Below are positions 5,687 through 43,965 of a stretch of 64,000 nt of DNA, one piece after another. The DNA is from Deferribacter thermophilus (GTDB lineage: Bacteria; Chrysiogenota; Deferribacteres; Deferribacterales; Deferribacteraceae). A program made the translations under genes and the position numbers. The notes under the pieces are model-generated. The model had not been told where the DNA came from. It searched no databases and saw only the letters and a program-made list of their open reading frames with translations. Every line of letters starts with the position of its first letter. The stretch's first letter is position 1. The stretch covers positions 25,521 through 89,520 of the forward strand of contig NZ_JAPNXM010000007.1 in the NCBI RefSeq assembly GCF_049472675.1, in the 5' to 3' direction.

Positions 5687-5848
5687 AATACCTCCATCTT
5701 TTCTTAGTTAAATAATGTTTAACCTACAATATAAAAAAAATCAATACCAAAGACTTTTTGATATAGATTAGAAGAGCTTATATATTCTAAAAAGTTTATC
5801 TCGAGGTAATTACTAGAGGCTGTTTTATAACTGTAGCTCAAATTACCA

Positions 5849-6013
5849 GATCGCTTCGTCAGCTCTCGCTTCCTAGCGATGACAAACTGATTATCGTCAT
5901 TGCGAACGAAGTGAAGCAATCTCCTGCGTCAACGACATAAAAGAGATTGCTTCGTCGCTATACTCCTCGCAATGACTGAGAAATTAGTCTTTGCGAGCGT
6001 TAGCGAAGCAATC
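5849..6013. repeat. Cluster of four 26-35 bp palindromic repeat units in alternating orientation (consensus GTCATTGCGAGCG-N-AGCGAAGCAATC)
   Basis: Units at 5849-5883 (reverse, degenerate), 5896-5921 (forward), 5945-5976 (reverse) and 5987-6013 (forward). The same unit recurs at 6694-6720, 24827-24853, 38910-38936 and 38946-38978. Confidence 0.85.
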
Positions 6014-6099
6014 TAATGAGCTTATTTCTTACATTAATTTTATAAATGTTTTTTTACTAATATTGATTTTATTATAGTAATTTCTTATAAATAAAATAG

Positions 6100-6339
6100 A
6101 TGGAGAAGCAAGTGATAATAAAATTTACAAGGCATGCTAAAAGAAGAGCAAAACTTTATAAAATACCAAAAGAATTAATTGTCAATATTCTGAAAAATAT
6201 TGACACTTCTCAAGGTGAGCATGAAATAATAAAATATGTTGAAGGGTTTAAATATCCATTAAAGATTGTTTTTGTTGTAGAAAATAATATATTAACAGTA
6301 ATTACAAATTATCCATTAAAAAGGGGGTATAAAAAATGA
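6100..6339 (+). CDS. DUF4258-family small protein (putative toxin of a type II TA pair)
   Basis: 79 aa with an H-A-K-R-R motif near the N-terminus and a VVEnNILTVITnY C-terminus, as in DUF4258. Its stop overlaps the downstream start (ATGA). Confidence 0.6.
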   Translation: MEKQVIIKFTRHAKRRAKLYKIPKELIVNILKNIDTSQGEHEIIKYVEGFKYPLKIVFVVENNILTVITNYPLKRGYKK

Positions 6340-6548
6340 AAGTATATTATGATGATGCTGCAGATGCTATTTATATAGAGCTTAATAATGTAGAGCCAGA
6401 TGGGGTTATTGAATCTGATAATGGTATCAATCTTGATACTGACTCTGAAGGCAGAATTGTTGGAATTGAAATCCTAAATGCATCTAAAAAGATAGATTTG
6501 TCTTCTCTCCTTACTTACTCTTTTGAGGTTAAAAAAAAGGTGGTTTAA
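6336..6548 (+). CDS. DUF2283-family small protein (putative antitoxin partner of DUF4258)
   Basis: 70 aa. MKVYYDDAADAIYIEL...GRIVGIEILNASK matches the DUF2283 pattern. Translationally coupled to the upstream gene. Confidence 0.6.
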   Translation: MKVYYDDAADAIYIELNNVEPDGVIESDNGINLDTDSEGRIVGIEILNASKKIDLSSLLTYSFEVKKKVV

Positions 6549-6671
6549 CAAAATCCAAAAATCTCTTATAATTCCTTATTCATTATAAATTGAATGTATA
6601 TATAATCACAATTAAACTTTGTTAAACAATCTGCTCCTTATCACTCTTTTCTAACTTTGTTAACATAATTT

Positions 6672-6720
6672 GCAACATACAATGACTGCCTTTGTCTTTG
6701 CTAGCCTCAGCGATGCAATC
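6672..6720. repeat. Isolated, partly degenerate copy of the palindromic repeat unit
   Basis: GTCTTTGCTAGCCTCAGCGATGCAATC at 6694-6720, plus a half-unit (..ACAATGAC) at 6672-6687. Confidence 0.6.
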
Positions 6721-6742
6721 TCAAAAATAATAAATTTTTATT

Positions 6743-7123
6743 TTACTTATTATTATTTCTATTTTGCATATACCTTTTTACTTCTTCCCTTTCTTTAACA
6801 AGGTGGTCTAACAGCTCCTTTAATCTCCAATTTAAGTTATGCTCTGTCACCATACAAAAAAGTGGCTTTGGCAGATCAATCTTTTTATAACTTTCTATAA
6901 AATCTATTATCTCATTTTGCTCAGCACCTGCAAACATTATCAAAACTTCGCTATGAATATCCCCTTTTTCAAAATTGCCATCACCATTTAAAATTTCTTT
7001 AACCAGTAAATCATCCTGATCTCTATATGCAAAAATATAGTCAAACCCTTTTTGTGAACATAAATTTTTCAATAAATCTTTTTGCTCTCCATCAAGGCCG
7101 CATGCCAAAATTTTTTTATTCAT
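6743..7123 (-). CDS. Hypothetical protein (possibly DUF3783-like), last gene of the TAXI-TRAP operon
   Basis: 126 aa, overlaps the upstream CN-hydrolase gene by 8 nt. The domain call is from memory only. Confidence 0.5.
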   Translation of the reverse strand: MNKKILACGLDGEQKDLLKNLCSQKGFDYIFAYRDQDDLLVKEILNGDGNFEKGDIHSEVLIMFAGAEQNEIIDFIESYKKIDLPKPLFCMVTEHNLNWRLKELLDHLVKEREEVKRYMQNRNNNK

Positions 7124-13993: not shown

Positions 13994-14833
13994 TTTTGCC
14001 TCCTTAGAGACTTTAAAATATCAAGCTGGTTTTTATAACTTTTATCCTCATCAAAAGGGGTTTCCAAAATGCCCAAAACACCATCTAACCTTTCATCATT
14101 CACAAGTTTCTCAAAAAATTCTAAACCTAATAAACCTCTACCGATATAGGCGTGTCTATCTATTTTTGATCCACACTCTTTATTTGTATCATTTAGGTGA
14201 AAAACTTTTATTTTATCTTTAAAATTAGTAAAAAAAGTATCAATTACTTCATCATATCTGTTTTTTAAATCATACCCTGCCGCATACATGTGGGCAGAAT
14301 CAAGACACACACCAATCTTTTCAGGAAATTTAGAATTTTGAATTATATAATCTATGCTCCCATTTATAACCTAAATTTGAGCCTTGGCCTGCTGTCACTT
14401 CAAGCAATGTCATAACATTAAAATGATACTCAGAATAAACTCTGTCAATATTTAGAACTATTTTATTTAACCCTTCTTGCTCGCCAATTCCTAAATGAGA
14501 GCCAGGATGCATTACATAAAAAGGAACATTCAGTTGATCACATCTTGACAACTCATCAATAAAACATTTAACTGACTTTTCCTCTGTCTCTTTTTTCGGA
14601 GAACAAAGATTTATCAAATAGGCACTATGGGCACAAATTCTATCAAAGCCTAAATTTTCTGCAAAAACTTTAAATTTATTTACATCTTTATCTGAATATG
14701 GCTTAGCAACCCACCTATTTGCATTTTTTGTAAAAATTTGTAAACACTCACAACCATCACTTTCTGCAAGTTTTAGGCTGTTGAAAACACCACCAGAAAT
14801 TGATTCATGAGCTCCAAGAAGCATGAGGCCCAC
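13990..14833 (-). pseudogene. nfo: Endonuclease IV (nfo) interrupted by a single frameshift near 14350-14358
   Basis: The 5' ORF ends ...TAGQGSNLGYKWEH. The 3' ORF continues in another frame as ..IDYIIQNSKFPEKIGVCLDSAHMYAAGYDL, which aligns with the Nfo core ..EHLAAIIDG..VGVCIDTCHAFAAGYDL. The two pieces together make about 280 aa. Confidence 0.7.
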
Positions 14834-23589: not shown

Positions 23590-24609
23590 ATGGCCTTACA
23601 AAAAAAGGAAAAATATAATGTTGCTATTGTTGGTGCTACTGGAGCTGTTGGGCAGGTATTTTTACAAATCTTAGAAGAAAGAAATTTCCCAATTGATGAA
23701 TTAAGATTACTTGCATCAAGTAGATCAGCTGGCAAGAAGGTAAAATTTAAAGGGGAAGAGTATACAGTTCAGGAATTAACTCATGATAGTTTTGAAGGGA
23801 TAGATATTGCTCTTTTTTCCGCTGGAGGTGGCAGAAGTAAAGAGTTTGCTCCATCAGCAGTAAAAGCAGGTGCCGTGGTAATTGACAACAGTTCTGCTTT
23901 TAGAATGGACAAAGATGTTCCATTGGTTGTTCCTGAAGTCAACCCTGATGATGCTTTTAAACATAATGGGATAATTGCAAACCCAAACTGTACTACTATT
24001 ATTATGGTCGTAGCATTAAAACCTCTTCATGATTATGGTAAAATCAAAAGGGTGGTAGTTTCATCATATCAATCAGCTTCTGGCGCAGGTGCAAAAGCAA
24101 TGCAAGAGTTGATGGATCAAACAAGAGCTTGGGTAAATGGAGAACCTCTAAAAGTAGAAGCTTTTCAACATCAACTGCTTTTTAATGTAATACCACACAT
24201 AGATGTTTTTATGGAAAATGGATACACTAGAGAAGAGATGAAAATGTACAACGAAACTAAAAAAATCATGGGTGATGATTCTATTGAAGTAACAGCAACC
24301 TGTGTAAGGGTTCCAGTTTTGACAGCACATTCAGAAGCTGTAACTGTAGAAACTGAAAAGAAAATAACAGTAGAAAAAGCAAAAGAGCTTTTTAGTAATG
24401 CTCCAGGTATACAAGTATTAGACAACCCAGAAAAAAATGAGTATCCAATGCCACTTTTTGTATCAGGTAAAGACGATTGTTATGTAGGTAGAATCCGCGA
24501 AGATATTTCAAAAGAGAATTCTTTAAACTTCTGGGTAGTAGGTGATCAATTAAGAAAAGGTGCTGCCCTTAACGCGGTTCAAATAGCAGAATTACTTATT
24601 TCAAAATAA
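23590..24609 (+). CDS. asd: Aspartate-semialdehyde dehydrogenase
   Basis: 339 aa with VAIVGATGAVGQ NAD-binding motif and active-site Cys in NPNCTT. Confidence 0.9.
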   Translation: MALQKKEKYNVAIVGATGAVGQVFLQILEERNFPIDELRLLASSRSAGKKVKFKGEEYTVQELTHDSFEGIDIALFSAGGGRSKEFAPSAVKAGAVVIDNSSAFRMDKDVPLVVPEVNPDDAFKHNGIIANPNCTTIIMVVALKPLHDYGKIKRVVVSSYQSASGAGAKAMQELMDQTRAWVNGEPLKVEAFQHQLLFNVIPHIDVFMENGYTREEMKMYNETKKIMGDDSIEVTATCVRVPVLTAHSEAVTVETEKKITVEKAKELFSNAPGIQVLDNPEKNEYPMPLFVSGKDDCYVGRIREDISKENSLNFWVVGDQLRKGAALNAVQIAELLISK

Positions 24610-24614
24610 AAAAA

Positions 24615-24650
24615 TGGGAGCTTTACGCTCCCATTTCCTATATTTTTTAA
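24615..24650 (+). terminator. Rho-independent terminator of asd (TGGGAGC-ttta-GCTCCCA followed by a T-rich tract)
   Basis: 7-bp stem immediately after the asd stop, followed by ATTTCCTATATTTTTT. Confidence 0.7.
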
Positions 24651-24656
24651 AAATGA

Positions 24657-24888
24657 GGCTATTGCACAATAAACTATATTTTTGCTAACAAAGTAGTTTT
24701 GAGGTTGATTCTCCCGCCATTAACTTAACATCTTAATAATTATATATCAATAACATAATATACTCAAAAAATTATAAACTCAACTTCTGCCAATAAATGG
24801 CTGGGTCGCAATAACCCAAAAATGCCGTCATTGCGAGCGTCAGCGAAGCAATCTAAATTCTTAAAACTAATACTATTGTGCAACACCC
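24657..24888. mobile_element. MITE-like element (~232 bp) with 15-bp terminal inverted repeats GGCTATTGCACAATA / TATTGTGCAACACCC and one internal palindromic unit
   Basis: TIRs at 24657-24671 and 24874-24888 match 13/15 as reverse complements. Internal unit GTCATTGCGAGCGTCAGCGAAGCAATC at 24827-24853. No ORF. Confidence 0.55.
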
Positions 24889-27993: not shown

Positions 27994-28052
27994 TTTTTCT
28001 TTAGCTTTATAAAAATTTTTTAGATGTTGCCACTTGATGTGGCAGCATTTCT

Positions 28053-33248: not shown

Positions 33249-33452
33249 TTATATTTTTACAACATTGGAGGCCTGTGGACCTTTAGGCCCTTCAACGATA
33301 TCAAACTGAACCTGATCGCCTTCTTTAAGGCTTTTGAAACCGTCCATTTTAATAGCAGTAAAATGAACGAATACATCATTACCGTCGGAGCTGGTAATAA
33401 AACCATACCCCTTTGAATCGTTAAACCACTTAACTGTTCCTGTCTTACTCAT
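33249..33452 (-). CDS. cspA: Cold-shock protein
   Basis: 67 aa. [18 protein letters not shown]-1 motif. Confidence 0.9.
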
Positions 33453-33677
33453 AAACTCACCTCAAAATTTTGTTACAGGGGTAAACCCCTTATTTAATCC
33501 TACCCTTATATTATACTTAAGTCAAATAAAATTTAATAAAAAATAAAAATTCTGTAAATATTCATTCTTATTGGTGTATGTATTTTTTAAGATAAAAGAC
33601 TTACAGAATTTAAATCTGGCAACAATAGAAAAACACTATAATTCAAATGAAAAGAAAGGAGGGTAGCCCCTCCTTTC

Positions 33678-34343
33678 TTATTTAGTAAAGTCTAATAATT
33701 GTTTAACAGTTTTTTCGATACCTTCAGCAACCTCAGAAATACGCTGACCAAGCATATAAGCAGGTGTAGTAATTATTTTATTTTCTTCATCCACAACTGC
33801 TTCTTTAACAGGACAATTGATATGAGTAGCTCCCAAATTCTCAACAGCAGATGCAACATTTTCATCCGTACCAATAGTTATTTTAGTTTTTATCCCCGCT
33901 CCTTCTAAAGCTTTTGCAACTAAAACTGGAGCTATACAAATAGCAGCTAAAGGTTTTTTAGCTTCAATAGTCTCTTTAACTATCCTTTTCACTTCCGGAT
34001 CTATTTGACAATCCACACCATCTACTGCAAAAGTTGTAAGATTTTTAGCGGCACCAAAACCACCAGGAAAAATTAAAGCATCAAAATCATCTACTTTAAC
34101 ATCTTTTAAATCCTTTATGTTGCCTCTTGCAATTCTTGCTGATTCTACTAATACATTTCTACTCTCCCCTTCAGCAACCTCACCAGTCAAATGATTAACA
34201 ACATGAAGCTGTTCTTTATTTGGTGCAGCTATCAAAAGTTCAGCTCCATACTTATCTAAAAAATACATAGTCAAAACTGCTTCATGAATTTCACTACCAT
34301 CATAAACCCCACATCCACTCAAAACAACACATACTTTTGCCAT
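33678..34343 (-). CDS. elbB: ElbB/ES1-family DJ-1/PfpI-like protein (glyoxalase ElbB homologue)
   Basis: Strong similarity to E. coli ElbB (VVLSGCGVYDGSEIHEAVLT..PGGFGAAKNL..TTPAYML). The likely true start is the internal MAKV with an RBS (GGAGGTG). The ORF track extends 13 codons further to 34382. Confidence 0.85.
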   Translation of the reverse strand: MAKVCVVLSGCGVYDGSEIHEAVLTMYFLDKYGAELLIAAPNKEQLHVVNHLTGEVAEGESRNVLVESARIARGNIKDLKDVKVDDFDALIFPGGFGAAKNLTTFAVDGVDCQIDPEVKRIVKETIEAKKPLAAICIAPVLVAKALEGAGIKTKITIGTDENVASAVENLGATHINCPVKEAVVDEENKIITTPAYMLGQRISEVAEGIEKTVKQLLDFTK

Positions 34344-34476
34344 AATTTCACCTCCAAAATTTGATACTAACTGGCTCAACAATATTAAATTTAATGCATT
34401 TATTGAAAAGTTTCAATTATAAAAATATATTTTATTTTGGCAAAAATTTATTTATTATGTAAGAAACTAACAAGGG

Positions 34477-35304
34477 GTGGATGAGATGGTAGAAAAATAT
34501 CAAAAATGTGCAGAATTAATCAAAGAAGCTGAAGTTTTGATTATTACTGCAGGAGCAGGAATTGGTGTTGATTCAGGCTTACCTGATTTTAGAGGAGATA
34601 AAGGGTTCTGGAAAGCTTACCCGATGTATGAAAGATTAGGATTAAATTTTGTTCAGTGTGCTAATCCCGTACACTTTGAGAGTGATCCATCTTTTGGTTG
34701 GGGTTTTTATGGGCACCGTTTAGAGATGTACAGAAATACAACCCCACATAAAGGTTTTTACATAATGCTGGAATGGATTGAAAAATTTGGATTAGATTAT
34801 TTTGTCGTAACATCAAATGTGGATGGACAATTTCAAAAGGCAGGTTACGAAGAAGATAAAATCTACGAAATCCATGGCTCAATTCATCACCTTCAGTGTG
34901 TAAAACCCTGCACAATGGCAATTTGGGAAAACACAGAACATATTGAAATAGATTATGATACAATGAGAGCTAAAAATATCCCCAGATGTAAATTTTGTGG
35001 TGATGTAGCAAGACCAAATATTTTAATGTTTGGAGATTATTCATGGATTGCTGACAGATCGCACAGACAATCAGTTTTATTTGATAATTTCTTAGAAGAA
35101 CACGAAAACAGTAAAATTGTAGTTATAGAGATTGGAGCAGGTACTGCAATCCCATCAATAAGATACACCAGCGAAAGGATAGGCAGATATCATAATGCAA
35201 CAGTCATAAGAATTAACCCAAGAGAGCCTCATATCAACAAACCACACATTTCTATCCCAGAAGGAGGCCTTAAAGCACTATCTGAAATCAACAAATATAT
35301 TTAA
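34477..35304 (+). CDS. Sir2-family NAD-dependent protein deacylase
   Basis: GAGIGVDSGLPDFRG motif and a CxxC..CxxC zinc ribbon. 275 aa. Confidence 0.8.
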   Translation: MDEMVEKYQKCAELIKEAEVLIITAGAGIGVDSGLPDFRGDKGFWKAYPMYERLGLNFVQCANPVHFESDPSFGWGFYGHRLEMYRNTTPHKGFYIMLEWIEKFGLDYFVVTSNVDGQFQKAGYEEDKIYEIHGSIHHLQCVKPCTMAIWENTEHIEIDYDTMRAKNIPRCKFCGDVARPNILMFGDYSWIADRSHRQSVLFDNFLEEHENSKIVVIEIGAGTAIPSIRYTSERIGRYHNATVIRINPREPHINKPHISIPEGGLKALSEINKYI

Positions 35305-35310
35305 AATATA

Positions 35311-35811
35311 TTATTTTTGTAAAACTTTTATAATTTCACCAATATACATACGATGATAATCTTTTTTGGGGTAGAATGTTTCTATTTCCTTATCAAGAAA
35401 ATTAGACGGATTTAAATCTGAAAAGTATAGCTTTTTGCAACAATAAACAGTATCTGCTTCTTCAAAATATATAAAATTATCATCATTTATTACGCTTAGT
35501 CCAGTTTCCTTAACTTTATCTACATCATACCCAGATTTAGTTCCGCAAAAGTTTAAAACATCTCTGTATTCTTCATCAAAAAAAGAAAGCGTAAAGTATT
35601 CTGTCTTTTCCATTAGCTCAAAAGTATATCGTGTAGGCCTAATAAAAGCATAAACCACATTTTTATGCCATAAAATACCAAAACCTCCCCAACTTGCAGT
35701 CATAGGGTTTACTTTCTCAGCAGTTGGAGTAATAAGCATCCATCTATCATTAATTTCAGTAAAAGGGTTAAAATTTAGTTCATTTATTTTTACCTTTTTA
35801 AACATTTTCAC
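35311..35811 (-). CDS. Flavin reductase-like / split-barrel FMN-binding protein
   Basis: 166 aa. The pattern is consistent with the flavin reductase-like domain. Weak. Confidence 0.5.
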   Translation of the reverse strand: MKMFKKVKINELNFNPFTEINDRWMLITPTAEKVNPMTASWGGFGILWHKNVVYAFIRPTRYTFELMEKTEYFTLSFFDEEYRDVLNFCGTKSGYDVDKVKETGLSVINDDNFIYFEEADTVYCCKKLYFSDLNPSNFLDKEIETFYPKKDYHRMYIGEIIKVLQK

Positions 35812-35877
35812 CTCCGATTAAAGAAATTAACTAATTCTGGATTGTAATTCAACACTTTTTTTGATAAAAAATGTTGG

Positions 35878-37194
35878 ATGAATAATAAACAACTAACATA
35901 TACCAAGATTTTTAAATTTTGGTTCCCTCTTGCCTCTACATGGTTGATGATGGCTCTTGAAGGCCCTATACTTGCAGCTATAATAGCAAGACTACCCAAT
36001 GAAAAGGTAAATTTAGCAGCCTATGGTATTGCTTTAGCCTTTGGGCTAATTCTGGAATCTCCAATAATAATGATAATGGCAGCTGCTACAGCACTTATAA
36101 AGGATAAAAATTCTTATCAAAAAATACGTAATTTTACCATGATGTTAAATTTTATTGTTACAATATGCATTTTGATATTACTTTTACCTCAAGTTTTTAA
36201 CTTTATTGCAGGAAAACTTATTGGTTTAAAGGAACCTGTTTATACACTAACATATAATGCCACAATGTTTTTATTGCCCTGGCCTGGAGCAATTGGTTAT
36301 AGAAGACTTTATCAAGGTGTTTTAATAGTCAATGACAAAACAAAGTTTATAGCATACAGTACAATTATTAGACTTGTTTCAAACATTTCAACTGCATTTT
36401 TATTATATAAATTTACTATAATTGATGGGGCTTACATTGGAACTATAGCTCTATCAACAGGAGTTATTTTTGAAGCGTTAGCTGTTAGAATTATGGCTCA
36501 CAAATCTGTAAAAGAGATAATTAATAGAAAACCAACAAAGGAACAACTTACTTACAAATTTATATCAAAATATTATTACCCTTTAGCTCTAACCCCTTTT
36601 ATTGCTTTATCATCTCAACCAATCGTAACATTCTTCTTAGGTAAAAGTTTAAAGGCTTTGGAGTCTTTAGCCGTAATGCCAGTAGTTTACTCGCTAACCT
36701 TTATTTTTAGAAGTATAGGGTTATCCTATCAAGAAGTAATAATAGCCTTAACAAATCAGTATCCAGATTTTAAACATAAAATTAGAAACTTTGCAATAAT
36801 CCTTGCCATCACAGTTACCTCTTTATTATATAGTATAACTGCTACACCACTTTCTGATATTTATTTTTTAAAACTTAGCGGATTATCTTATGAGTTGGCA
36901 GAATTTGCCAAAACCCCAGCTTTAATAATGTCAATAATGCCAGCACTTACACTATTATTAACCTATCAAAGAAGTATTTTTATTTTACAAAAAATTACCT
37001 TGCCTATCACTATTGGAACTATTATAGAAGTTTTAGGAATTATTATCGTCATATCATTTCTAATAAAAATGAAGATATTCGTAGGTGCAATATGTGCTGC
37101 CTTGGCATTTGTCTCAGGAAGACTATTAGCAAATATTTATTTCCACATTAGTATCTTTTTTGTAAAACGGAGAAAAAATGTTAAAAATGTATAA
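35878..37194 (+). CDS. Polytopic membrane protein of the MOP/MATE-like exporter superfamily
   Basis: 438 aa with about 12 predicted TM segments. Confidence 0.45.
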   Translation: MNNKQLTYTKIFKFWFPLASTWLMMALEGPILAAIIARLPNEKVNLAAYGIALAFGLILESPIIMIMAAATALIKDKNSYQKIRNFTMMLNFIVTICILILLLPQVFNFIAGKLIGLKEPVYTLTYNATMFLLPWPGAIGYRRLYQGVLIVNDKTKFIAYSTIIRLVSNISTAFLLYKFTIIDGAYIGTIALSTGVIFEALAVRIMAHKSVKEIINRKPTKEQLTYKFISKYYYPLALTPFIALSSQPIVTFFLGKSLKALESLAVMPVVYSLTFIFRSIGLSYQEVIIALTNQYPDFKHKIRNFAIILAITVTSLLYSITATPLSDIYFLKLSGLSYELAEFAKTPALIMSIMPALTLLLTYQRSIFILQKITLPITIGTIIEVLGIIIVISFLIKMKIFVGAICAALAFVSGRLLANIYFHISIFFVKRRKNVKNV

Positions 37195-37260
37195 TAATTT
37201 TCAAATAATAAATTTTTATTGTTGTTTGATTATGTGGTAAAGATTTGCTAAAATAATATT

Positions 37261-37908
37261 ATGAAAATATTGTTGATTGAAGACGATTTGTTACTAGGAG
37301 AAAGTTTAAAGGAATTTCTAGAATCAGAGAAAAATGATGTGGACTGGATAATTGACGATAGAGAATACGAATATAAGCTATTATCAAATGAGTATGATAT
37401 TATACTTCTTGATTTGATGTTAAAATTTAATAAAGGTGAAGAACTTTTAAAAAAAATTAAAAAGCTAAAAAACATTCCTATTATAATCATTACTGCAAAA
37501 TTTGACTTATCTGATAAAGAAACCTGTTTTTTGTTAGGAGCTGATGACTATATTACCAAACCCTTTGAACCAAAAGAATTGTTGCTTAGAATAAACGCTG
37601 TCACCAGAAGATATTTTGACAATAAAAATAGAATTTATATATCAGATGAAATTGTCATCGATATTACCCAACAATCGCTTTTCATAAATAATGAGCTTAT
37701 CCCTCTTACTAAAAAAGAGTGGGAGCTTTTATACATTTTAGCAAAAAATAGAGGTAAAATTGTATCAAACGAATGTATCCTAAATTATGTCTGGCAGGAA
37801 AACCCAGTAGGTACAGAATCAATCAGAACCTATATAAAAAAACTTAGAGAAATCTTAGGAAAGGATTTAATAGAAACCCACAAAGGTCGGGGGTATCGAT
37901 TAAAATAA
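37261..37908 (+). CDS. OmpR-family response regulator
   Basis: Receiver domain (DD..E.., LDLML, K) plus a C-terminal winged-helix trans_reg_C. Confidence 0.85.
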   Translation: MKILLIEDDLLLGESLKEFLESEKNDVDWIIDDREYEYKLLSNEYDIILLDLMLKFNKGEELLKKIKKLKNIPIIIITAKFDLSDKETCFLLGADDYITKPFEPKELLLRINAVTRRYFDNKNRIYISDEIVIDITQQSLFINNELIPLTKKEWELLYILAKNRGKIVSNECILNYVWQENPVGTESIRTYIKKLREILGKDLIETHKGRGYRLK

Positions 37909-37964
37909 AATTTGAAATAAAAATTTTTATCGCTTTAGAGCTAATCATTGCCATTGTCCTCAGT

Positions 37965-38858
37965 ATGATTAACTTAATTTTCATTTTTAGCTACAAAATA
38001 GAAATTGAAGAACAATTAAAAAAAGAAATTCCTCTTTACCTAACTCTAAAAGCCACCAATAAAAAATTTAAACTACCAGATTATTTGCTTATTGAAAATA
38101 AACTATCATTCAAAAAAGATTACACCCTTTTTAATGTAAACGGAGAAAAATACATCTATATCAAATCTTCATACATAAAAGACAAGCTCAAAGATAAGCT
38201 CTTTATAATTTTTTACTGGGATATGATAGCAATCTTTTCTGTGGCAATATTGTATTATCTTGTTTTATACAGGTTGATAATAAAAGAAAAAAATTATCTA
38301 AAAAACTTTGAGATTCTACTTCTAATTTTTTCTCACAAACTGAGAAACTTTTTAACCACCTCAAAACTCAATCTTCATTTAATCAAAACAGAAAACAGAG
38401 TCCCACTGGAAAGATTAATTCATGCTCATGAAAACCTTGCAAAAGATTTAGAAAATATTCAATATTTTATCAAAAGATTACCCACTCAAAATCAAAGTAA
38501 AAATAAAATAAATATACCTATTTTAGTTAAATCTTTAATCGAAGAGCTGGAGCTAAACAAACTTTTTTCTATAAAATTTAATTGTTCTGAAATTTATATT
38601 AATGCACCTTATCAAGATATTTACTTTGCCTTATACCTTTTGTTTGATAATATCTTAAAACATGCAGGTCAAAATGTCACAATAAAATGCGGCAAAATCA
38701 AAAAATTAAAATATCTCATTATAAAAAATGATATAACTGAAAATGAAACAAAAGGGCTTGGAGTAGGTTTATATGTTGCAGAAAAACTCCTTACCACCAA
38801 TGGCTTCAAAATCAAAAGAAAAATAACCTCAACCTTCACAATCGCCATCAAATTTTAA
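37965..38858 (+). CDS. Compact sensor histidine kinase
   Basis: H-box SHKLRNFL and G-box GLGVGLYVAEKLL. 297 aa. Confidence 0.65.
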   Translation: MINLIFIFSYKIEIEEQLKKEIPLYLTLKATNKKFKLPDYLLIENKLSFKKDYTLFNVNGEKYIYIKSSYIKDKLKDKLFIIFYWDMIAIFSVAILYYLVLYRLIIKEKNYLKNFEILLLIFSHKLRNFLTTSKLNLHLIKTENRVPLERLIHAHENLAKDLENIQYFIKRLPTQNQSKNKINIPILVKSLIEELELNKLFSIKFNCSEIYINAPYQDIYFALYLLFDNILKHAGQNVTIKCGKIKKLKYLIIKNDITENETKGLGVGLYVAEKLLTTNGFKIKRKITSTFTIAIKF

Positions 38859-38872
38859 CAACAAATTTAATA

Positions 38873-39022
38873 GGCTGTTGCACAATAAAGAAAATAATAT
38901 AATTTTTGAGATTGCTTCACTGACGTTAGCAATGACCAATTTCGCGTCATTGCGAGGAGCGAATGCGACGAAGCAATCTATCGATTATTAATTTTCCCAA
39001 CTTAAACTATTGTACAGCAGCC
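38873..39022. mobile_element. MITE-like element (~150 bp) with TIRs GGCTGTTGCACAATA / TATTGTACAGCAGCC and two internal palindromic units in opposite orientation
   Basis: TIRs at 38873-38887 and 39008-39022. Internal units at 38910-38936 and 38946-38978. Confidence 0.55.
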
Positions 39023-39136: not shown

Positions 39137-39445
39137 ATGAAAAAAATATTTCTTGTATTAATCATATGTTTTTCATTATCTATAATGAGTTTTGCAAAAG
39201 AAGAATCTAATAATCTACCTAAAGAGCAAGTTGTTAATTTAAAAACAGGATATATAAAAAGCTTTAAAAATGAATTCATATCTTTGGAAGATGGTTTCTA
39301 TTTTTATGTTGATGAAAATACTGTAATTATTAACCCTGAAAATAGAAAAGTAGATAAAAAATTCTTAAAATCTGCATATAAAATTAAATATAAAAACAAC
39401 GGAAATTATGTATATTACATAAAAATATTATCATTAGTTAAATAG
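39137..39445 (+). CDS. Small secreted protein translationally coupled to pilY1
   Basis: 102 aa with a signal peptide. Its stop overlaps the pilY1 start. Confidence 0.45.
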   Translation: MKKIFLVLIICFSLSIMSFAKEESNNLPKEQVVNLKTGYIKSFKNEFISLEDGFYFYVDENTVIINPENRKVDKKFLKSAYKIKYKNNGNYVYYIKILSLVK

Positions 39446-42400
39446 TGAGGATTGCTATGGGCAAATGCATTACAATATCTTTAATAATAATTTTAATGTG
39501 TTTTTTTAATCCAGTATTATCTCAAGCTGCAAAACCATCAAACAACTCAGATGCTGGACAAATGGTTACTTACTGCTCTATACCACCATTTGTTTCCTCA
39601 GCTATTCAGCCAAATGTGCTAATAATACTGGATAATTCTGGAAGCATGTTTGAATTTGTATATAAAGAAGAAAAATCTACAAGATCATACTCTAACGATT
39701 GTTCAAATGATGCTACAGTTTATTCAGGATACAAAGATAATGAAACCTATTTTGGCCTTTTTGATCCTAATAAGAAATACTCATATAATACTACTAATGA
39801 TTATTTCTATGAAATAGAAAATGGTGAATGGAGTGGTAATTTTTTAAATTGGTTAACAACCAGGAGAATAGATGCAGTAAAAAAAGTATTAACTGGAGGA
39901 AAATATATCATCACCAATGATGGAAATATTTTGTTAACTGCAACAGATAATTTTGATAGAGATAGTCGAAAAATATTAGAAAATAATGTACAAAATCTCA
40001 CTGGACTTAATAATTATAACGATCAAGGTGCTTATTTTTACTTTTACAATAATAATAATAATAATAATAATAACTTTGTTTATTTTGATGTTAGACCTGC
40101 AACATGGAATAATAACTGTTGGGTAGTTGATAATAATCCTACAACATTTAGAGTTGCTTTGAAAGTCGAAACACAACCCTCTGGGATAATACAGAAAACA
40201 TGGGATAAAGTAAGATATGGACTTTTCACCTTTAATTATGACGATGGAGGTCATTTAGTTTCTGAAATAGGGAGTAAATATGATAATCCAACATTTATTG
40301 ATGACATAAATAAAATCACTCCGTCAACTTGGACTCCACTTGGAGAAACTCTATATGAAGCTACTTTATATTTTAAAGGAGATAAAACTTTTTATAACGG
40401 TGATTATACATATAATAGCCCTATCCAATATAGTTGTCAGCAAAATTATGTTCTTATTTTAACTGATGGTGAATCAACAAGGGATAAAAACTTTCCAAAC
40501 AAACTTGATAGTAATGACCCAAATAGCACAATTGATAATCTTCTTGACATTATTGAAGAAAATGAGGGGTTTAATGATAACAGATTACATAATGACTTAA
40601 ATGATTCCAATGGATCATATAGCTTAGCTGCAGTATCTTATTGGGCTCATACTACAGATTTAAGAGAAGACTTAACAGGTACTCAAAAATTAAATATTTT
40701 TACAATCTTTGCATTTGATGATTCGGAAAACGCAAAAGATTTACTTAAACTTTCAGCAAAATACGGTTCTTTTGCTGATAATAATTTTAATAATTTGCCA
40801 GACAATTCAAACGAATGGGATGCAAACAATGATAATATTTCTGACAACTATTTCGAGGTCAATAAAGCAACTGATTTAGAAACAAGTTTAAGTACAACAA
40901 TTGCTAAAATTTTGCAAGGGGCAGCAGCAGGTTCTGGTGTAGCCCTCATGACTGATAGGACAAGTAGCACAAGTATTGCTATCCAAGGTTTATTTGAAAA
41001 CAAAAAGGATATTGATAATTCAACATTGACATGGATTGGACGTTTATTTGGGTGGTGGGTTTATGCAATAGAAAAAGATAATGAAAGTATAAAAGTTAAC
41101 ATTAGAGAAGATACAATAAATAATAAAAAGTTTAAATTAACAGAAGATAGAATTTTAACATATGATTATGACGTATTAGATAATAAATTAGTGCTAAAAC
41201 TTATTACATGTGATGACAATGGCTCTGGTCTAATTGATAATTCTAGTTGTAAAACTTTCTATTCTTTTGACGACATTACACCAATATGGGATGCAAGTGA
41301 AGAATTATTAAATAGAGAAGCTGATAATAGAACAATTTACACATATAATGATAATGGAGATCTTATTCCAATTGATGATTACAATAACTCAGAATTGTTT
41401 GGTACAGATAATACCACATATATCACATCTTTAATAGATTACATAAAAGGTATTGATTCTGATAACTATAGAAATAGAACAATTAAAGTTGATAATGAAC
41501 AAAAAGTATGGAAGTTAGGTGACATTATCCACTCTAGACCTATGTTGGTAAAGTATGATGATTATACTGTTGCTTATGTTGGAGCAAATGACGGAATGCT
41601 TCATGCATTTAAGGTAGGTTATGCTAAAAAATTAAGAGATGATCCAGAGGGTTATTTAGCAGTCTTACAAAATTCTAAAAATGACAGTGGACAGAATGAA
41701 ATAGGTAAAGAGCTATGGGGATTTATACCACATTCTGTTATCCCATATTTAAAATTTCTGGCAGACCCAAATTATTGCCATTTATATTATGTGGATGCAC
41801 AACCATATATAATAGAAGAAGATGGAAAGAAAATCTTAATCGGCGGATTAAGATTAGGTGGGGGTTGCTATTGTAGTAAGCAGGAAGCTGCTGATGAATG
41901 TGTCAAAAGTCCTGATAACGAAAATGGACTATCGTCATACTTTGCACTAGACATTACAGATCCAGAAAATCCAAAATTTCTGTGGGAATTTAATCATAAA
42001 GACTTAGGTTTTTCATACTCTGGTCCTGCTTATATAAAACGCCCCGAAGGTAAATATATAATGTTTTCTTCAGGACCTACTACATATGATGGTCACTCCT
42101 CTAAGTCATTGAAATTTTTTATTTTAAAATTAGATGAAGATTTCAAATTAATAAATAATACTCCAGATGTTTTAGACGGTAAAACTCAAAACGCATTTGG
42201 TGGTAAACTATATACAACTGGTATTGATAAAAATGAAGATGGTTTTACTGATTTTATAGTAACAGGTATTGTAAAAAATGTAGGTAAAACAAATTCTCAA
42301 GGTGGTTTAGTCGTAATCCATACCAAAGGAGGAGATCCATCAGCTTGGACTGTTTATCAAAATTATTATAATTTTAGCCAAAACCCAACCGTTTCTAAAG

Positions 42401-43113
42401 TCGAAGCAGGCAAATGTTTTAACTTAGGTTATTATTTGTTTTTTGGTAGCGGTAGATATTTTTATCCTGGAGATGATGAAGGAACCTCAGGTGTTGGAAA
42501 CGAAGAGAATTATATTTACGGAATACCTTTTGACTGTGATGTTGAAGAAGGTTGCAAAGGGACTGTTAACAATATTAAATCTGTAGAGCTATTAGATGAC
42601 CCTTGTAATGACCTAACAAATTTTGAAATCACAAACAATGAGTCTAAGGAACTAGGGTGGAAAATAAAATTAGACCCTACTGATAATGTATATTTAAAGG
42701 AAAGAAATATTATAGACCCTGTTTTAGTAAAAAATAAAAACAATCCAGCTAATAGATATACTAATAATAGAGATTACTGGACATCGCAAATCATTACATT
42801 TATTACAAACAAATATGAAAAAGATCCATGTATTTTAAAAGGTAAAAGTAAAATATGGGCACTTAACTGTGCTACTGGTGGTCCTTTAAGACCAGACAAT
42901 ATTACTCACAAAATTTGTAGTAATTATCAAGTAACTGACGACTTTGCTATATTTACTACAGCTAGTACAGGTGAAATTTCTATTGTAACAGATGACGATG
43001 TAGGAACTGAAAGATTCATCGAAAAAGATAGTAATATTATAGCTTCTGATTTAGGTGAAGACTTAACTGGTAACAATAGAAAAGGTAGAATACTTTTATG
43101 GATAGAAAAATAA
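39445..43113 (+). CDS. pilY1: Type IV pilus tip-associated adhesin, PilY1/PilC-like, with an N-terminal vWA domain
   Basis: Signal peptide. vWA MIDAS motif LIILDNSGSM. C-terminal PilY1-type region with a Ca-binding-like loop DKNEDGFTD. 1222 aa, followed by four prepilin genes. Confidence 0.7.
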   Translation: MRIAMGKCITISLIIILMCFFNPVLSQAAKPSNNSDAGQMVTYCSIPPFVSSAIQPNVLIILDNSGSMFEFVYKEEKSTRSYSNDCSNDATVYSGYKDNETYFGLFDPNKKYSYNTTNDYFYEIENGEWSGNFLNWLTTRRIDAVKKVLTGGKYIITNDGNILLTATDNFDRDSRKILENNVQNLTGLNNYNDQGAYFYFYNNNNNNNNNFVYFDVRPATWNNNCWVVDNNPTTFRVALKVETQPSGIIQKTWDKVRYGLFTFNYDDGGHLVSEIGSKYDNPTFIDDINKITPSTWTPLGETLYEATLYFKGDKTFYNGDYTYNSPIQYSCQQNYVLILTDGESTRDKNFPNKLDSNDPNSTIDNLLDIIEENEGFNDNRLHNDLNDSNGSYSLAAVSYWAHTTDLREDLTGTQKLNIFTIFAFDDSENAKDLLKLSAKYGSFADNNFNNLPDNSNEWDANNDNISDNYFEVNKATDLETSLSTTIAKILQGAAAGSGVALMTDRTSSTSIAIQGLFENKKDIDNSTLTWIGRLFGWWVYAIEKDNESIKVNIREDTINNKKFKLTEDRILTYDYDVLDNKLVLKLITCDDNGSGLIDNSSCKTFYSFDDITPIWDASEELLNREADNRTIYTYNDNGDLIPIDDYNNSELFGTDNTTYITSLIDYIKGIDSDNYRNRTIKVDNEQKVWKLGDIIHSRPMLVKYDDYTVAYVGANDGMLHAFKVGYAKKLRDDPEGYLAVLQNSKNDSGQNEIGKELWGFIPHSVIPYLKFLADPNYCHLYYVDAQPYIIEEDGKKILIGGLRLGGGCYCSKQEAADECVKSPDNENGLSSYFALDITDPENPKFLWEFNHKDLGFSYSGPAYIKRPEGKYIMFSSGPTTYDGHSSKSLKFFILKLDEDFKLINNTPDVLDGKTQNAFGGKLYTTGIDKNEDGFTDFIVTGIVKNVGKTNSQGGLVVIHTKGGDPSAWTVYQNYYNFSQNPTVSKVEAGKCFNLGYYLFFGSGRYFYPGDDEGTSGVGNEENYIYGIPFDCDVEEGCKGTVNNIKSVELLDDPCNDLTNFEITNNESKELGWKIKLDPTDNVYLKERNIIDPVLVKNKNNPANRYTNNRDYWTSQIITFITNKYEKDPCILKGKSKIWALNCATGGPLRPDNITHKICSNYQVTDDFAIFTTASTGEISIVTDDDVGTERFIEKDSNIIASDLGEDLTGNNRKGRILLWIEK
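40048..40074 (+). repeat. (AAT)8-AAC trinucleotide tract encoding N9 inside pilY1
   Basis: Direct observation: FYFYNNNNNNNNNFVYF. Confidence 0.9.
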
Positions 43114-43559
43114 TGAATAAAAAAGGGATAACTCTAATAGAATTACTTGTAGTAATATCAATTCTTGGTATAATATTAGCTATAGCAATACCAAATTATA
43201 ATAAATGGAAGATAAAGCATGAAAGAGAGAAAGAGTTGAGACAACTATATTCCATAATACAACAATACAGGACAAAAGCTTTTACTGAAAAAACAAGCTT
43301 CACACTTGAATTTCCTTCACAAAATAAATTAGACATTAAAAATGACAATGGAACTATCGTTAGCTCAATAACATTTAAAATATCCTTTGATAATCCAAGC
43401 ACTATAACAATTGACGATAGAGGTACTCTATCGAATATTTCAATCAAATTAATTAGTGATTCAATAAATGATTCACTACCTTACAATTGTATTGTCAGCA
43501 ACGGTATAAGAGTTAGATTAGGGAAAATAGATGGTGGTGGTAGCTGTGTTGCAAAATAA
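43113..43559 (+). CDS. Type IV minor pilin / pseudopilin (FimT/GspH-like)
   Basis: Prepilin leader MNKKG|ITLIELLVV with Glu+5. Start overlaps the pilY1 stop. The ORF track gives an upstream start at 43098. Confidence 0.7.
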   Translation: MNKKGITLIELLVVISILGIILAIAIPNYNKWKIKHEREKELRQLYSIIQQYRTKAFTEKTSFTLEFPSQNKLDIKNDNGTIVSSITFKISFDNPSTITIDDRGTLSNISIKLISDSINDSLPYNCIVSNGIRVRLGKIDGGGSCVAK

Positions 43560-43965
43560 AAAAGGATTTACATTAATAGAAATGATGGTTAGTTTATTTA
43601 TTTTTTCTGTGGCATTACTTGGGCTTGTAGCTTCGATGATAACTGTCAAAAAAATGAATATGAGAAATAATGTCAGAAATATTGCAATTGAGCAGGTTAA
43701 TAATGAAATCGAGAAATTAAGAGCATACGGTTTTAACAAGATAGATAATTTAATTGGCTCCTGTGAAAATATAGAGTGCTCCCCTGCAAACGACAACTGC
43801 AGCATGAAAGCCCAATATAGAAATACATGGATAAGTATAGGGAAATCTTTTACTGTAAATACTTCTGGCACTACTAAAGAAATAGTTATTACCTCTTGTT
43901 GGGAACTTTTTGGTAAAAAATATACTTATACAACTCAAACCTATATCGCAAAGGATATACAATGA
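43531..43965 (+). CDS. Type IV minor pilin (PilV-like)
   Basis: ..KKG|FTLIEMMVSL prepilin motif. The true start is probably an internal TTG/GTG just upstream of QNKKG. Confidence 0.65.
   Translation: MVVVAVLQNKKGFTLIEMMVSLFIFSVALLGLVASMITVKKMNMRNNVRNIAIEQVNNEIEKLRAYGFNKIDNLIGSCENIECSPANDNCSMKAQYRNTWISIGKSFTVNTSGTTKEIVITSCWELFGKKYTYTTQTYIAKDIQ

Follow-up and report, generated by a model that had tools for sequence, protein, structure and literature searches.

Among the closest described relatives of the repeats analysed here are the CGTC-tagged REPs, a superfamily with families CGTC-1 to CGTC-4 that includes Rickettsia RPE-4 and RPE-6 and Neisseria dRS3 (Di Nocera et al., BMC Genomics 2013, PMC3733652). 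When they were classified in 2013, the CGTC-tagged repeats had no known protein partner, and no RAYT was flanked by them (PMC3733652). The Neisseria representative, the NTS/dRS3 hairpin, was linked in 2025 to Ssn, a nuclease that cuts ssDNA at a specific site (Chenal et al., Nat Commun, PMC11893778). SsnA acts on ssDNA only and leaves the reverse strand uncut, and its nick lies a few nucleotides to the 5' side of the GTC tag in the cognate hairpin (PMC11893778). Cleavage is governed by the trinucleotide that precedes the palindrome on its 5' side, and binding depends most on the C just 3' of the palindrome; replacement of the loop is tolerated, and RNA is not bound (PMC11893778).

The window in which we find the present repeats is a stretch of 64,000 nts (64 kb) of Deferribacter thermophilus DNA. 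A first-pass annotation had claimed at least eight copies of a palindromic unit at four loci, and all eight that it listed (8/8) are in place. The left half of the unit, GTCATTGCGAGCG, has 6 matches in the 64-kb window at up to 2 mismatches where 0.11 are expected, and none of 100 shuffles reaches 6. The window units fall into two length classes, short (26-27 nts) and long (32-35 nts). As had also been claimed, they alternate in orientation within clusters (- + - + at 5849-6013; - + at 38910-38978) and they are intergenic, every copy lying between real genes. The main cluster, at 5849-6013, sits between divergent gene starts. The sole ORF overlapping copies, 5719-5919 (-), with 66 aa and a TTG start, is largely repeat sequence and has no Pfam match; an exact-protein look-up for three ORFs of the window gives no match on record. 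There is in addition a ninth, degenerate copy in which the distal arm is hugely expanded. The units are:

5849-5883 (-): c1, long unit, 35 nts, GTCATCGCTAGGAAGCGAGAGCTGACGAAGCGATC
5896-5921 (+): c2, short unit, 26 nts, GTCATTGCGAACGAAGTGAAGCAATC
5945-5976 (-): c3, long unit, 32 nts, GTCATTGCGAGGAGTATAGCGACGAAGCAATC
5987-6013 (+): c4, short unit, 27 nts, GTCTTTGCGAGCGTTAGCGAAGCAATC
6694-6720 (+): c5, short unit, 27 nts, degenerate, GTCTTTGCTAGCCTCAGCGATGCAATC, between convergent genes
24703-24815 (-): ninth copy, degenerate, expanded distal arm, GGTTGATTC + TCCCGCCATT, AT-rich loop of about 75 nts, AATGGCTGGG + TCGCAATAAC
24827-24853 (+): c6, short unit, 27 nts, GTCATTGCGAGCGTCAGCGAAGCAATC
38910-38936 (-): c7, short unit, 27 nts, GTCATTGCTAACGTCAGTGAAGCAATC
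38946-38978 (+): c8, long unit, 33 nts, GTCATTGCGAGGAGCGAATGCGACGAAGCAATC

Each unit is an oriented hairpin with the layout Y-GTC / ATTGC / GA / G-(variable stem-loop)-C / GA-A / GCAAT / C-Y. That is, a GTC tag is followed by a 5-bp stem ATTGC/GCAAT, tandem G·A mismatches with one extra A, a distal stem-loop that varies in sequence and length (from 7 to more than 100 nts), and a 3' C. The GTC tag and the 3' C are in all eight window units (8/8). At the flanking positions, which are not biased by the search pattern, there is a Y at -1 in 91% of the units and at +1 in 96%. The description of the unit as a 26-35 bp palindrome holds for the outer 5 bp (ATTGC/GCAAT) and fails for the interior, which forms a small hairpin of its own between non-Watson-Crick G.A positions.

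The fold is supported by compensatory changes. For the 36-nt class of units, 85% of cells are paired compared to 72% in shuffles, and the covariation score is 0.327 vs 0.10, a value that 0 of 500 shuffles reach. Double changes are seen in 6 of the 7 distal pairs of this class, and pairing collapses when the partners are slid. Within the window, c1 has the basal stem ATCGC/GCGAT, which departs from ATTGC/GCAAT by a compensatory double change, and c7 has an A-T distal pair where c6 has G-C, also a compensatory change. Between the two D. desulfuricans copies of the expanded unit, the inner stem again shows a compensatory difference, CCCCGCCATT/AATGGCGGGG vs CCCAGCCATT/AATGGCTGGG. The mismatches show a strand asymmetry, with 44 G.T pairs vs 17 A.C pairs (p = 7e-4) and 223 G.A/A.G pairs vs 16 C.T/T.C pairs. 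The potential of the interior to form a hairpin is far above that of shuffles, and GNA triloops are dominant. GNA triloops closed by C-G are unusually stable in DNA minihairpins. By nearest-neighbour energies single units are weak hairpins, no more stable than shuffles.

Several other kinds of element can be set aside. No Rfam family matches the window at gathering thresholds, and a search of positions 5780-6780 at E<=10 gives chance-level matches only; no tRNA or tmRNA is found. By inspection, the 3-nt bulge that a K-turn has 5' of a G.A pair is missing, the alternating orientation and irregular spacing do not fit a CRISPR array, and the GTTRRRY/RYYYAAC core sites of integron attC are absent. 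The GC-skew switch near 38 kb is rejected as a replication origin, since no DnaA or origin-linked gene is nearby and the skew follows the gene strand. Literature matches to the motif and to peptide strings are primer coincidences only.

Confinement of the motif to the window was what the first-pass annotation had named as evidence against it, and the motif is instead spread far beyond. More than 120 genome stretches, drawn from about 20 phyla, have the core, as do more than 120 phage contigs. Unrelated bacteria share two of the window copies without a single difference: c2 matches units adjoining ssn homologues in metagenomic loci L278, L288 and L306 (26/26), and c3 a unit in a Micavibrio MAG (L213, 32/32). 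Two more window copies differ by 1 nt from counterparts elsewhere, c8 from a Bradyrhizobium unit (L168) and c6 from a unit in L250 that begins 4 nts past the stop codon of an ssn homologue.

CGTC REPs and the present units both have an unpaired (C/T)GTC tag, first stem pairs A-T and T-A, and a short 3' tail, the present units reading YGTC + ATTGC..GCAAT + C-Y(C/A). The CGTC-3 peptide VIAGLDPAIH (PMC3733652), which corresponds to GTCATTGCCGGG..CCCGGCAATCCA, has the ends GTCATTGC..GCAATC found in the present units. Both kinds of repeat are intergenic, occur in several phyla and have no RAYT association. Inverted dimers with the conserved 3' ends facing prevail in both, and heterodimers are frequent: of the 200 close pairs across our loci, 135 have 3' ends facing, 32 have 5' ends facing and 33 are direct, and by length 108 doublets are long+short, 58 long+long and 1 short+short. 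The window has both inverted kinds, since c3 forms a 3'-ends-facing pair with c2 (gap 23 nts) and a 5'-ends-facing pair with c4 (gap 10 nts). There are also differences. CGTC REPs have a continuous stem of 8-9 bp and a loop of 4-5 nts, whereas in the present units a basal stem of 5 bp is followed by a G.A/G.A-A internal loop and then by a distal arm whose length runs from 7 to more than 100 nts. CGTC REPs mostly form 3'-facing dimers, whereas 5'-facing doublets, with the tags facing, predominate in Deferribacter itself. Deferribacterota are not among the phyla reported for CGTC REPs (PMC3733652).

Outside Deferribacter the units have a gene partner. A tblastn search of 240 motif-bearing loci finds two GIY-YIG genes only, and both are tightly bracketed by units: a long unit (+) ends 10-13 nts before the ATG and a short unit (-) begins 6-8 nts past the stop. 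The two proteins match the Pfam GIY-YIG domain (PF01541) with E-values of 3e-15 and 6e-18. We then have 80 metagenomic homologues (64-74% identity), which derive from these two seed proteins, themselves found via the motif, so that their independence rests on 26-36% sequence divergence and diverse neighbourhoods; a unit lies within 120 nts on at least one side in 78 of the 80 and on both sides in 53. The gene encodes a single-domain GIY-YIG protein of about 95 aa. It usually has a long unit ahead of its ATG and, past its stop, a short one in inverted orientation. The doublets described above show a long/short asymmetry like that of these cassette flanks. Over 91% of its length, the protein shares 44% identity with the product of the Neisseria gonorrhoeae ssnA locus, which is flanked by canonical NTS hairpins CGTCATTCCCGC..GCGGGAATC. 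At E<=1e-10, the GIY-YIG clade comprises about 5,000 clusters at 50% identity. Other ORFs that recur next to the ssn cassettes are antisense or repeat-derived artefacts. In phages, the gene families recurrent beside units are portal, terminase and adaptor only, which reflect related phages and identify no partner gene; no ssn homologues are found in the viral contigs.

Ssn/NTS and the present system share the hairpin-gene-hairpin arrangement around a single-domain GIY-YIG gene of about 95 aa. In both, the repeats are oriented hairpins that have a (C)GTCAT tag at the 5' end, A-T and T-A as the first stem pairs and ATC-Y as the 3' tail, and they occur in dispersed intergenic copies and in clusters. 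The GTC and the C after the palindrome, which are most critical for SsnA, are conserved in the present units. The stems differ: the present units combine ATTGC with G.A pairs and a variable distal arm, while NTS has a perfect ATTCCCGC stem with a 3-nt loop. The published SRM pattern HGTCWYN(0-2)YYVSBRHN(0-5)WNVSBRGN(0-2)RNCYNB, which is its authors' search device and no biochemical definition, fits 0 of 749 present units and correctly finds 4 NTS copies in Neisseria locus L323; the present class is therefore not covered by that pattern search. Other differences from Ssn/NTS are the two length classes pairing long+short, the way in which the flanking units point with respect to the gene, mostly opposite to that in the N. 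gonorrhoeae ssnA locus examined, and the units in many phage contigs without the gene. Unlike Neisseria with its ssnA, the Deferribacter DNA examined has no partner gene that we can see. Neither ssn nor any other GIY-YIG gene is in the 64-kb window, in about 31 kb of D. desulfuricans chromosome (counted as non-overlapping, since loci L121 and L324 overlap) or in short contigs of relatives, and a plasmid database search gives no Deferribacter match, so the cognate enzyme may be absent from the genus.

The first-pass annotation had read the repeats as REP/BIME-like and had looked to a RAYT or IS200-type TnpA as the partner. The likeness to REP/BIME stands as far as dispersed intergenic hairpins in alternating clusters are concerned and does not extend to the tag, which is (Y)GTC and not the GTAG of RAYT-associated REPs. 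A classical REP/BIME family, mobilised and maintained by a RAYT (a Y1 HUH enzyme), would have short intergenic hairpins, alternating clusters and inverted doublets, with a strand-specific hairpin of the kind used by HUH enzymes, all of which we see. The parallel with REPIN/RAYT and BIME systems (Nunvar 2010; Bertels and Rainey 2011; Ton-Hoang 2012) extends to a single-copy nuclease gene between hairpins accompanied by gene-less singlets and inverted doublets, and probably to the recognition of a strand-specific ssDNA hairpin with a short 5' tag. But all copies have the 5' tag YGTC, and tblastn with E. coli RAYT and IS200 TnpA, with queries of limited sensitivity, finds no match at E<1e-3 in the window or in 328 related loci. 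What the units systematically bracket elsewhere is an Ssn-type GIY-YIG nuclease gene, in place of the HUH Y1 enzyme of REPIN/RAYT, and PMC3733652 reports no RAYT next to CGTC-tagged repeats. REPINs are also lineage-specific and vertically inherited, in contrast to a core that is nearly identical across about 20 phyla and phages. We give almost no credence to a RAYT-driven origin. Since the units elsewhere flank an Ssn-related GIY-YIG gene, they are a new sequence class of a partly known system and not classical REP/RAYT.

The repeats could also have their primary role at the RNA level, as 3' stem-loops that stabilise mRNA, as processing sites, or as terminators or attenuators, the DNA associations being secondary. 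In the genomes, 50 units lie between convergent genes and 13 between divergent ones; in phage contigs, doublets are located 8-10 nts past stop codons, whereas single units closely precede ribosome-binding sites. The folding check suggested for clustered copies also has a positive outcome, as the fold of the four-unit cluster far surpasses that of shuffles (z = -4.3). Against such a role, single units have no orientation bias relative to flanking genes (33 vs 40 and 15 vs 12) and, as noted, no more stability than shuffles. No T tract follows any window unit, 0 units score as terminator-like, and asd carries its own bidirectional terminator upstream of the element found there. The location of the main window cluster between divergent gene starts, the GNA triloops of DNA-minihairpin type that dominate the units, and the failure of SsnA to bind RNA argue in the same direction. 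For these reasons the mRNA stabiliser that had been proposed finds little support and a primary RNA role seems very unlikely to us, while incidental effects of the units on transcripts are possible.

In Deferribacter the doublets sit inside longer inserts, some of them bounded by genus-specific inverted repeats (IRs), and the segments gained or lost exceed the doublets in size. Two composite elements and two empty orthologous sites are in the window:

24657-24888: composite 232-bp element downstream of asd, with outer IR GGCTATTGCACAATA (24657-24671), the expanded (-) unit, an 11-nt gap, a short (+) unit, and outer IR GGGTGTTGCACAATA (24874-24888, minus strand)
27994-28052: empty site of 59 nts in the HU-UDG spacer, where D. 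desulfuricans has a composite of about 255 nts (L121 14369-14700)
34383-34476: empty site of 94 nts in the DJ-1/SIR2 spacer, where D. desulfuricans (L324 7050-7321) and a close metagenomic relative (L325) have an insert of about 150 nts with a doublet
38873-39022: composite 150-bp element, with outer IRs GGCTGTTGCACAATA (38873-38887, +) and GGCTGCTGTACAATA (39008-39022, -) around a 5'-ends-facing doublet

The asd site is filled in D. desulfuricans (L121 11068-11298) and empty in D. autotrophicus (L122) and D. abyssi (L328), where about 40-48 nts separate asd from the MBL gene. In all, filled/empty differences occur at three sites among very close relatives, and at a fourth in comparison with D. 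autotrophicus and D. abyssi. The terminal repeat GGCTGTTGCACAATA occurs at 24657/24888, at 38873/39022, and in L121 and L324, and together with the presence/absence polymorphism it has the look of the terminal repeats of a MITE. The Deferribacter units might then be passive cargo of a genus-specific miniature inverted-repeat element bounded by GGCTGTTGCACAATA and moved by an unrelated transposase (DDE, for example), with the hairpins as inert relics there. This inverted repeat bounds two of the four loci in the window as well as several copies in D. desulfuricans, among the 328 loci it is found in Deferribacter only, the polymorphic HU-UDG insert is the whole composite of about 255 nts, and the Deferribacter DNA examined has no ssn gene. 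However, the cluster at 5849-6013, the copy at 6694 and the DJ-1/SIR2 doublet are without these inverted repeats, and no transposase is seen in the Deferribacter DNA examined. The two filled/empty comparisons (HU-UDG and DJ-1/SIR2) reveal no clear target-site duplication, because the flanks have diverged. A continuing constraint on the hairpin is suggested by the near-invariant core and by the compensatory changes that Deferribacter copies show in c1, in c7 and in the inner stem of the expanded unit. We regard passive cargo as unlikely; it concerns local spread only, and is compatible with an ssDNA-hairpin explanation that involves Ssn.

Taken together, the repeats are probably ssDNA hairpin modules of the (C/T)GTC-tagged class, akin to CGTC REPs and Ssn-related motifs, that serve as recognition sites for an Ssn-type GIY-YIG nuclease. 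The hairpin would form, and present the recognition site, whenever replication, transformation, conjugation or phage DNA metabolism leaves the GTCAT strand single-stranded. Specificity would reside in the conserved hairpin base (GTC, ATTGC/GCAAT, the G.A pairs and the 3' C), leaving the distal arm free to vary or expand. The dispersed singlets and the inverted long+short doublets would be gene-less relatives of the unit-ssn-unit cassette. The neighbouring GIY-YIG protein presumably cleaves the present hairpin class; such cleavage may take place in Deferribacter too, and the nuclease may have a part in copying the repeats.

A further-reaching reading, which we offer tentatively and consider doubtful, is that the unit-ssn-unit cassette is a mobile element of a kind not recognised before, with a GIY-YIG ssDNA nuclease as its driver, that the long+short doublets are its gene-less miniatures, and that the Deferribacter copies are orphan or trans-acting ones captured by the local element with terminal inverted repeats. 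If true, spread of the cassette across phyla and into phages would explain why a core of about 20 nts is near invariant from Deferribacterota to Alphaproteobacteria, and a fixed base with an insertion-tolerant distal arm may define a distinct, possibly programmable Ssn specificity. That doublets are derivatives of the cassette by internal deletion is retained as speculation only; their spacer of 18-32 nts is about the length of leader plus trailer, but there is no direct sequence support.

The analysis brings to light a hairpin class that a published search pattern misses yet that is linked to a large GIY-YIG clade. In D. thermophilus itself, the units are intergenic repeats of an ordinary kind and serve as markers of places where DNA was recently inserted or deleted. 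If the pairing of unit and nuclease is functional, it would extend the catalogue of Ssn specificities, which would be useful for ssDNA tools, it would account for frequent spurious small ORFs in many genomes (with peptide strings such as CHCERSEAIS and LAMT), and it would raise the question of how a DNA core of about 20 nts stays identical across phyla and phages.

All eight repeat copies that the first-pass annotation described in the window (c1 to c8) are present there, and they alternate in orientation within clusters as described (- + - + at 5849-6013, - + at 38910-38978). The copies are also intergenic, as claimed. The sole ORF that overlaps them, 5719-5919(-), matches nothing in Pfam and is mostly repeat sequence; with 66 aa, a TTG start and a body built mainly from repeat units, it is almost certainly spurious. 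In this DNA of about 31% G+C, there are 6 matches to the left half-motif with 2 mismatches or fewer, versus 0.11 expected. The description of the unit as a palindrome holds only in part. The window and related loci together gave 749 copies, 498 of them distinct; all share GTC-ATTGC-GA-[G...C]-GA-A-GCAAT-C, and true palindromy is restricted to the outer 5 bp. The interior has two 5'-GA-3' dinucleotides positioned for tandem G.A pairs, plus one extra A, and beyond them a distal stem-loop that varies freely in sequence and length (interiors of 7-25 nt in the common classes). The short 26-nt form has GCGAAGC at its centre, and the long 32-33-nt form nests a second G.A module, GAG-GAGCGnAGCGAC-GAAG. 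Loops are mainly GNA triloops with a C-G closing pair, a combination of unusual stability in DNA minihairpins.

The distal arm covaries. In the 36-nt class, 85% of cells pair versus 72% in shuffles, and the covariation score is 0.327 versus 0.10 in shuffles, a value reached by none of 500. Two-sided changes affect 6 of the 7 distal pairs, and shifting the partners abolishes pairing. Compensatory changes also occur in the window, where c1 replaces ATTGC/GCAAT with ATCGC/GCGAT, and c7 has A-T for the G-C of c6. The mismatch spectrum is strand-asymmetric (G.T 44 vs A.C 17, p = 7e-4; G.A/A.G 223 vs C.T/T.C 16), and therefore the hairpin is meaningful on the GTCAT strand only. The hairpin is oriented and strand-specific; its base is conserved and its distal arm is free. 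Outside the search pattern, the flanks carry Y at -1 (91%) and at +1 (96%), and the 5' side is pyrimidine-rich. By standard nearest-neighbour DNA energies single units do not rise above shuffles (z from -3.0 to +0.7); the four-unit cluster folds at z = -4.3 through pairing between adjacent inverted units. Among close pairs at all loci, 135 are inverted with conserved 3' ends facing, 32 have 5' ends facing and 33 are direct. By length, 108 are long+short, 58 long+long and just 1 short+short, a pattern that mirrors the gene flanks described below, long upstream and short downstream.

A role at the RNA level, such as the mRNA stabilisation first suggested, is weakened by several observations. The orientation of units is unbiased with respect to flanking genes (single units in phage contigs, 33 vs 40; genomes, 15 vs 12), a T tract is absent after every unit, asd has a separate terminator, and the main cluster is situated between the starts of divergent genes. 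Units in genomes do favour convergent over divergent locations (50 vs 13), an excess explained equally well by insertion tolerance downstream of genes. Just after asd, at 24609-24639, a strong hairpin, AAATGGGAGC..GCTCCCATTT, resembles a bidirectional intrinsic terminator, with a T tract on each strand; it is kept in D. desulfuricans and is distinct from the repeat element.

The motif is not confined to the window. The pattern GTCATTGCGAG-N8-24-GAAGCAATC matches at least 120 stretches in species-representative genomes and at least 120 IMG/VR viral contigs, those listed ranging from 31 to 72% G+C. Named among the matches listed are Alpha-, Gamma- and Deltaproteobacteria, Chloroflexota, Bacteroidota, Cyanobacteria, Patescibacteria, Planctomycetota, Omnitrophota, Ignavibacteriota, Verrucomicrobiota, Spirochaetota, Campylobacterota, Bacillota, Armatimonadota, Gemmatimonadota, Zixibacteria, Latescibacterota, Atribacterota and others. 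Conservation of the core between phyla is striking. Unit c2 is identical (26/26) to units adjoining GIY-YIG genes at three metagenomic loci, c3 is identical (32/32) to a Micavibrio MAG unit, and c6 and c8 each differ by a single substitution from units of other phyla. Phage units are situated among portal, terminase and adaptor genes. Some IMG/VR phage contigs (L010, L073, L021 and L068) hold 4-7 units, on a single strand throughout in L010 and L073, and many such units lie directly upstream of ribosome-binding sites or 8-10 nt past the stops of packaging or structural genes.

The repeats resemble REPs in form; the partner proposed with that reading, a RAYT, did not appear, since E. coli RAYT and IS200 TnpA had no tblastn match in the window or any of the 328 collected loci, and a GIY-YIG gene was found flanked by units instead. 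Two GIY-YIG sequences, used as tblastn queries on 240 motif-selected loci, found only 2 genes, in a Bacillota MAG (L232) and a Planctomycetota MAG (L161). Both encode proteins of about 95 aa with a Pfam GIY-YIG match and are bracketed alike: the ATG lies 10-13 nt past the end of a long unit(+), and a short unit(-) begins 6-8 nt past the stop. A metagenome scan with the alignment of these two proteins gave 80 homologues (64-74% identity), with units within 120 nt on both sides in 53 and on at least one side in 78. In their most frequent arrangement, 15-20 nt separate a 32-36-nt unit(+) from the ATG, and the stop is followed after 4-10 nt by a 26-nt unit(-); their real neighbour genes are diverse. 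The association of hairpin and gene in other genomes is tight and repeated. The family is large, with at least 8,000 word-sharing matches titled 'GIY-YIG nuclease family protein' in many phyla, and 14,237 representatives at 50% identity with E<=1e-3 (5,159 with E<=1e-10); no homologue was found in viral contigs. In other genomes, units yield recurrent pseudo-peptides (CHCERSEAIS, SLRAKRSNL, ..LAMT, ..RNDR) and artificially lengthen GIY-YIG proteins at the N terminus; many representatives in the database have 135-170 aa, with the match beginning at residue ~45. In one representative of 2350 aa (P0274), 14 separate stretches match the 95-aa query, which may reflect an assembly artefact or tandem copies read as a single ORF.

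Two known systems are close. CGTC-tagged REPs have an unpaired CGTC/TGTC tag, stems beginning A-T, T-A and a short 3' tail, and occur mainly as inverted dimers in five phyla, with no associated transposase (Di Nocera et al., PMC3733652). In Neisseria, SsnA (94 aa, with GIY-YIG as its single domain) binds the NTS hairpin CGTCATTCCCGCGMAVGCGGGAATCYRG as ssDNA only, the reverse strand, dsDNA and RNA not being substrates, and cuts a few nucleotides upstream of it; cleavage is governed by the three nucleotides preceding the palindrome, binding depends most on the C after it, the loop tolerates replacement or extension, and motifs of this kind commonly flank ssnA homologues (Chenal et al., PMC11893778). 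The protein found here is 44% identical to that of a Neisseria gonorrhoeae locus, itself flanked by NTS copies, and the positions important for SsnA are conserved in our units. Units and NTS share the GTCAT tag, the A-T/T-A stem start and the ATC-Y tail. None of the 749 copies fits the published degenerate pattern of the Ssn-related motif, which does recover the NTS copies of the Neisseria locus. The units therefore belong to the same kind of system but constitute a sequence class of their own.

In Deferribacter, some doublets belong to larger elements, and repeat sites are gained or lost on short timescales. The aspartate-semialdehyde dehydrogenase of the window matches the NCBI protein of D. 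thermophilus at 100% identity and the D. desulfuricans SSM1 protein at 99%.

Composite elements and variable spacers in Deferribacter
24657-24888, composite element, 5'-ends-facing doublet bounded by inverted repeat GGCTGTTGCACAATA
38873-39022, composite element, 5'-ends-facing doublet bounded by inverted repeat GGCTGTTGCACAATA
asd-MBL spacer, filled in D. thermophilus and D. desulfuricans, empty in D. autotrophicus and D. abyssi
HU-UDG spacer, filled in D. desulfuricans, empty in the window (27994-28052)
DJ-1/SIR2 spacer, filled in D. desulfuricans and a metagenomic relative, empty in the window (34383-34476)
Flavin reductase-SIR2 junction, filled in one metagenomic relative, empty in the window

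The indels span ~150-255 nt, exceeding doublet size, and show no recognisable target duplication. The bounding repeat occurs in Deferribacter loci only, among the 328. Passive spread of some copies within such a terminal-inverted-repeat element is plausible and compatible with a hairpin-nuclease system; it does not cover the largest cluster. The asd-proximal (-) unit has an expanded distal arm, a 10-bp inner stem with an AT-rich loop of ~75 nt, whose two D. desulfuricans copies differ by one compensatory change. In the Deferribacter DNA searched (the window, ~31 kb of D. desulfuricans chromosome and short contigs of relatives), no GIY-YIG gene was seen. The HU-downstream spacer holds a composite repeat element in D. 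desulfuricans, an empty 59 nt in D. thermophilus and, by eye, a tRNA-like sequence in D. autotrophicus (L122, ~14150-14260).

Synteny between window 33452-38860 and D. desulfuricans (L324, 1-10000) breaks repeatedly, and several breakpoints coincide with doublets. Only D. desulfuricans has LysR and Cons_hypoth698 genes and a 631-aa DsbH-like thioredoxin gene; only the window has a response regulator (37261-37908) and a 297-aa ORF (37965-38858). We rejected a replication origin at the GC-skew sign change at ~36000-39000: gene strand switches there too, and DnaA or another origin-linked gene is absent nearby. The ORF directly downstream of the 38.9-kb doublet (39445-43113(+), 1222 aa) lacks any Pfam domain. 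The ORFs after it carry prepilin-type N-terminal methylation motifs (N_methyl, 43098-44882), which suggests a cluster of the type IV pilus or pseudopilin-like sort, one component of which is large and uncharacterised. Between c4 and c5, two units in direct orientation, lies a small ORF pair (6100-6548) that looks like a toxin-antitoxin-type cassette:
6100-6339, 79-aa ORF, no Pfam match, DUF4258-like by eye
6336-6548, 70-aa DUF2283 ORF, 4-nt overlap with the 79-aa ORF

Within the D. thermophilus genome the repeats are ordinary; as a sequence class they are new among CGTC-tagged, Ssn-related hairpins. By likeness to SsnA, a neighbouring GIY-YIG nuclease would recognise the hairpin on ssDNA and nick 5' of GTC; a contribution of the nuclease to repeat spread would be putative and speculative. 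As proposed for Neisseria, such recognition and nicking may modulate how incoming or replicating ssDNA recombines.
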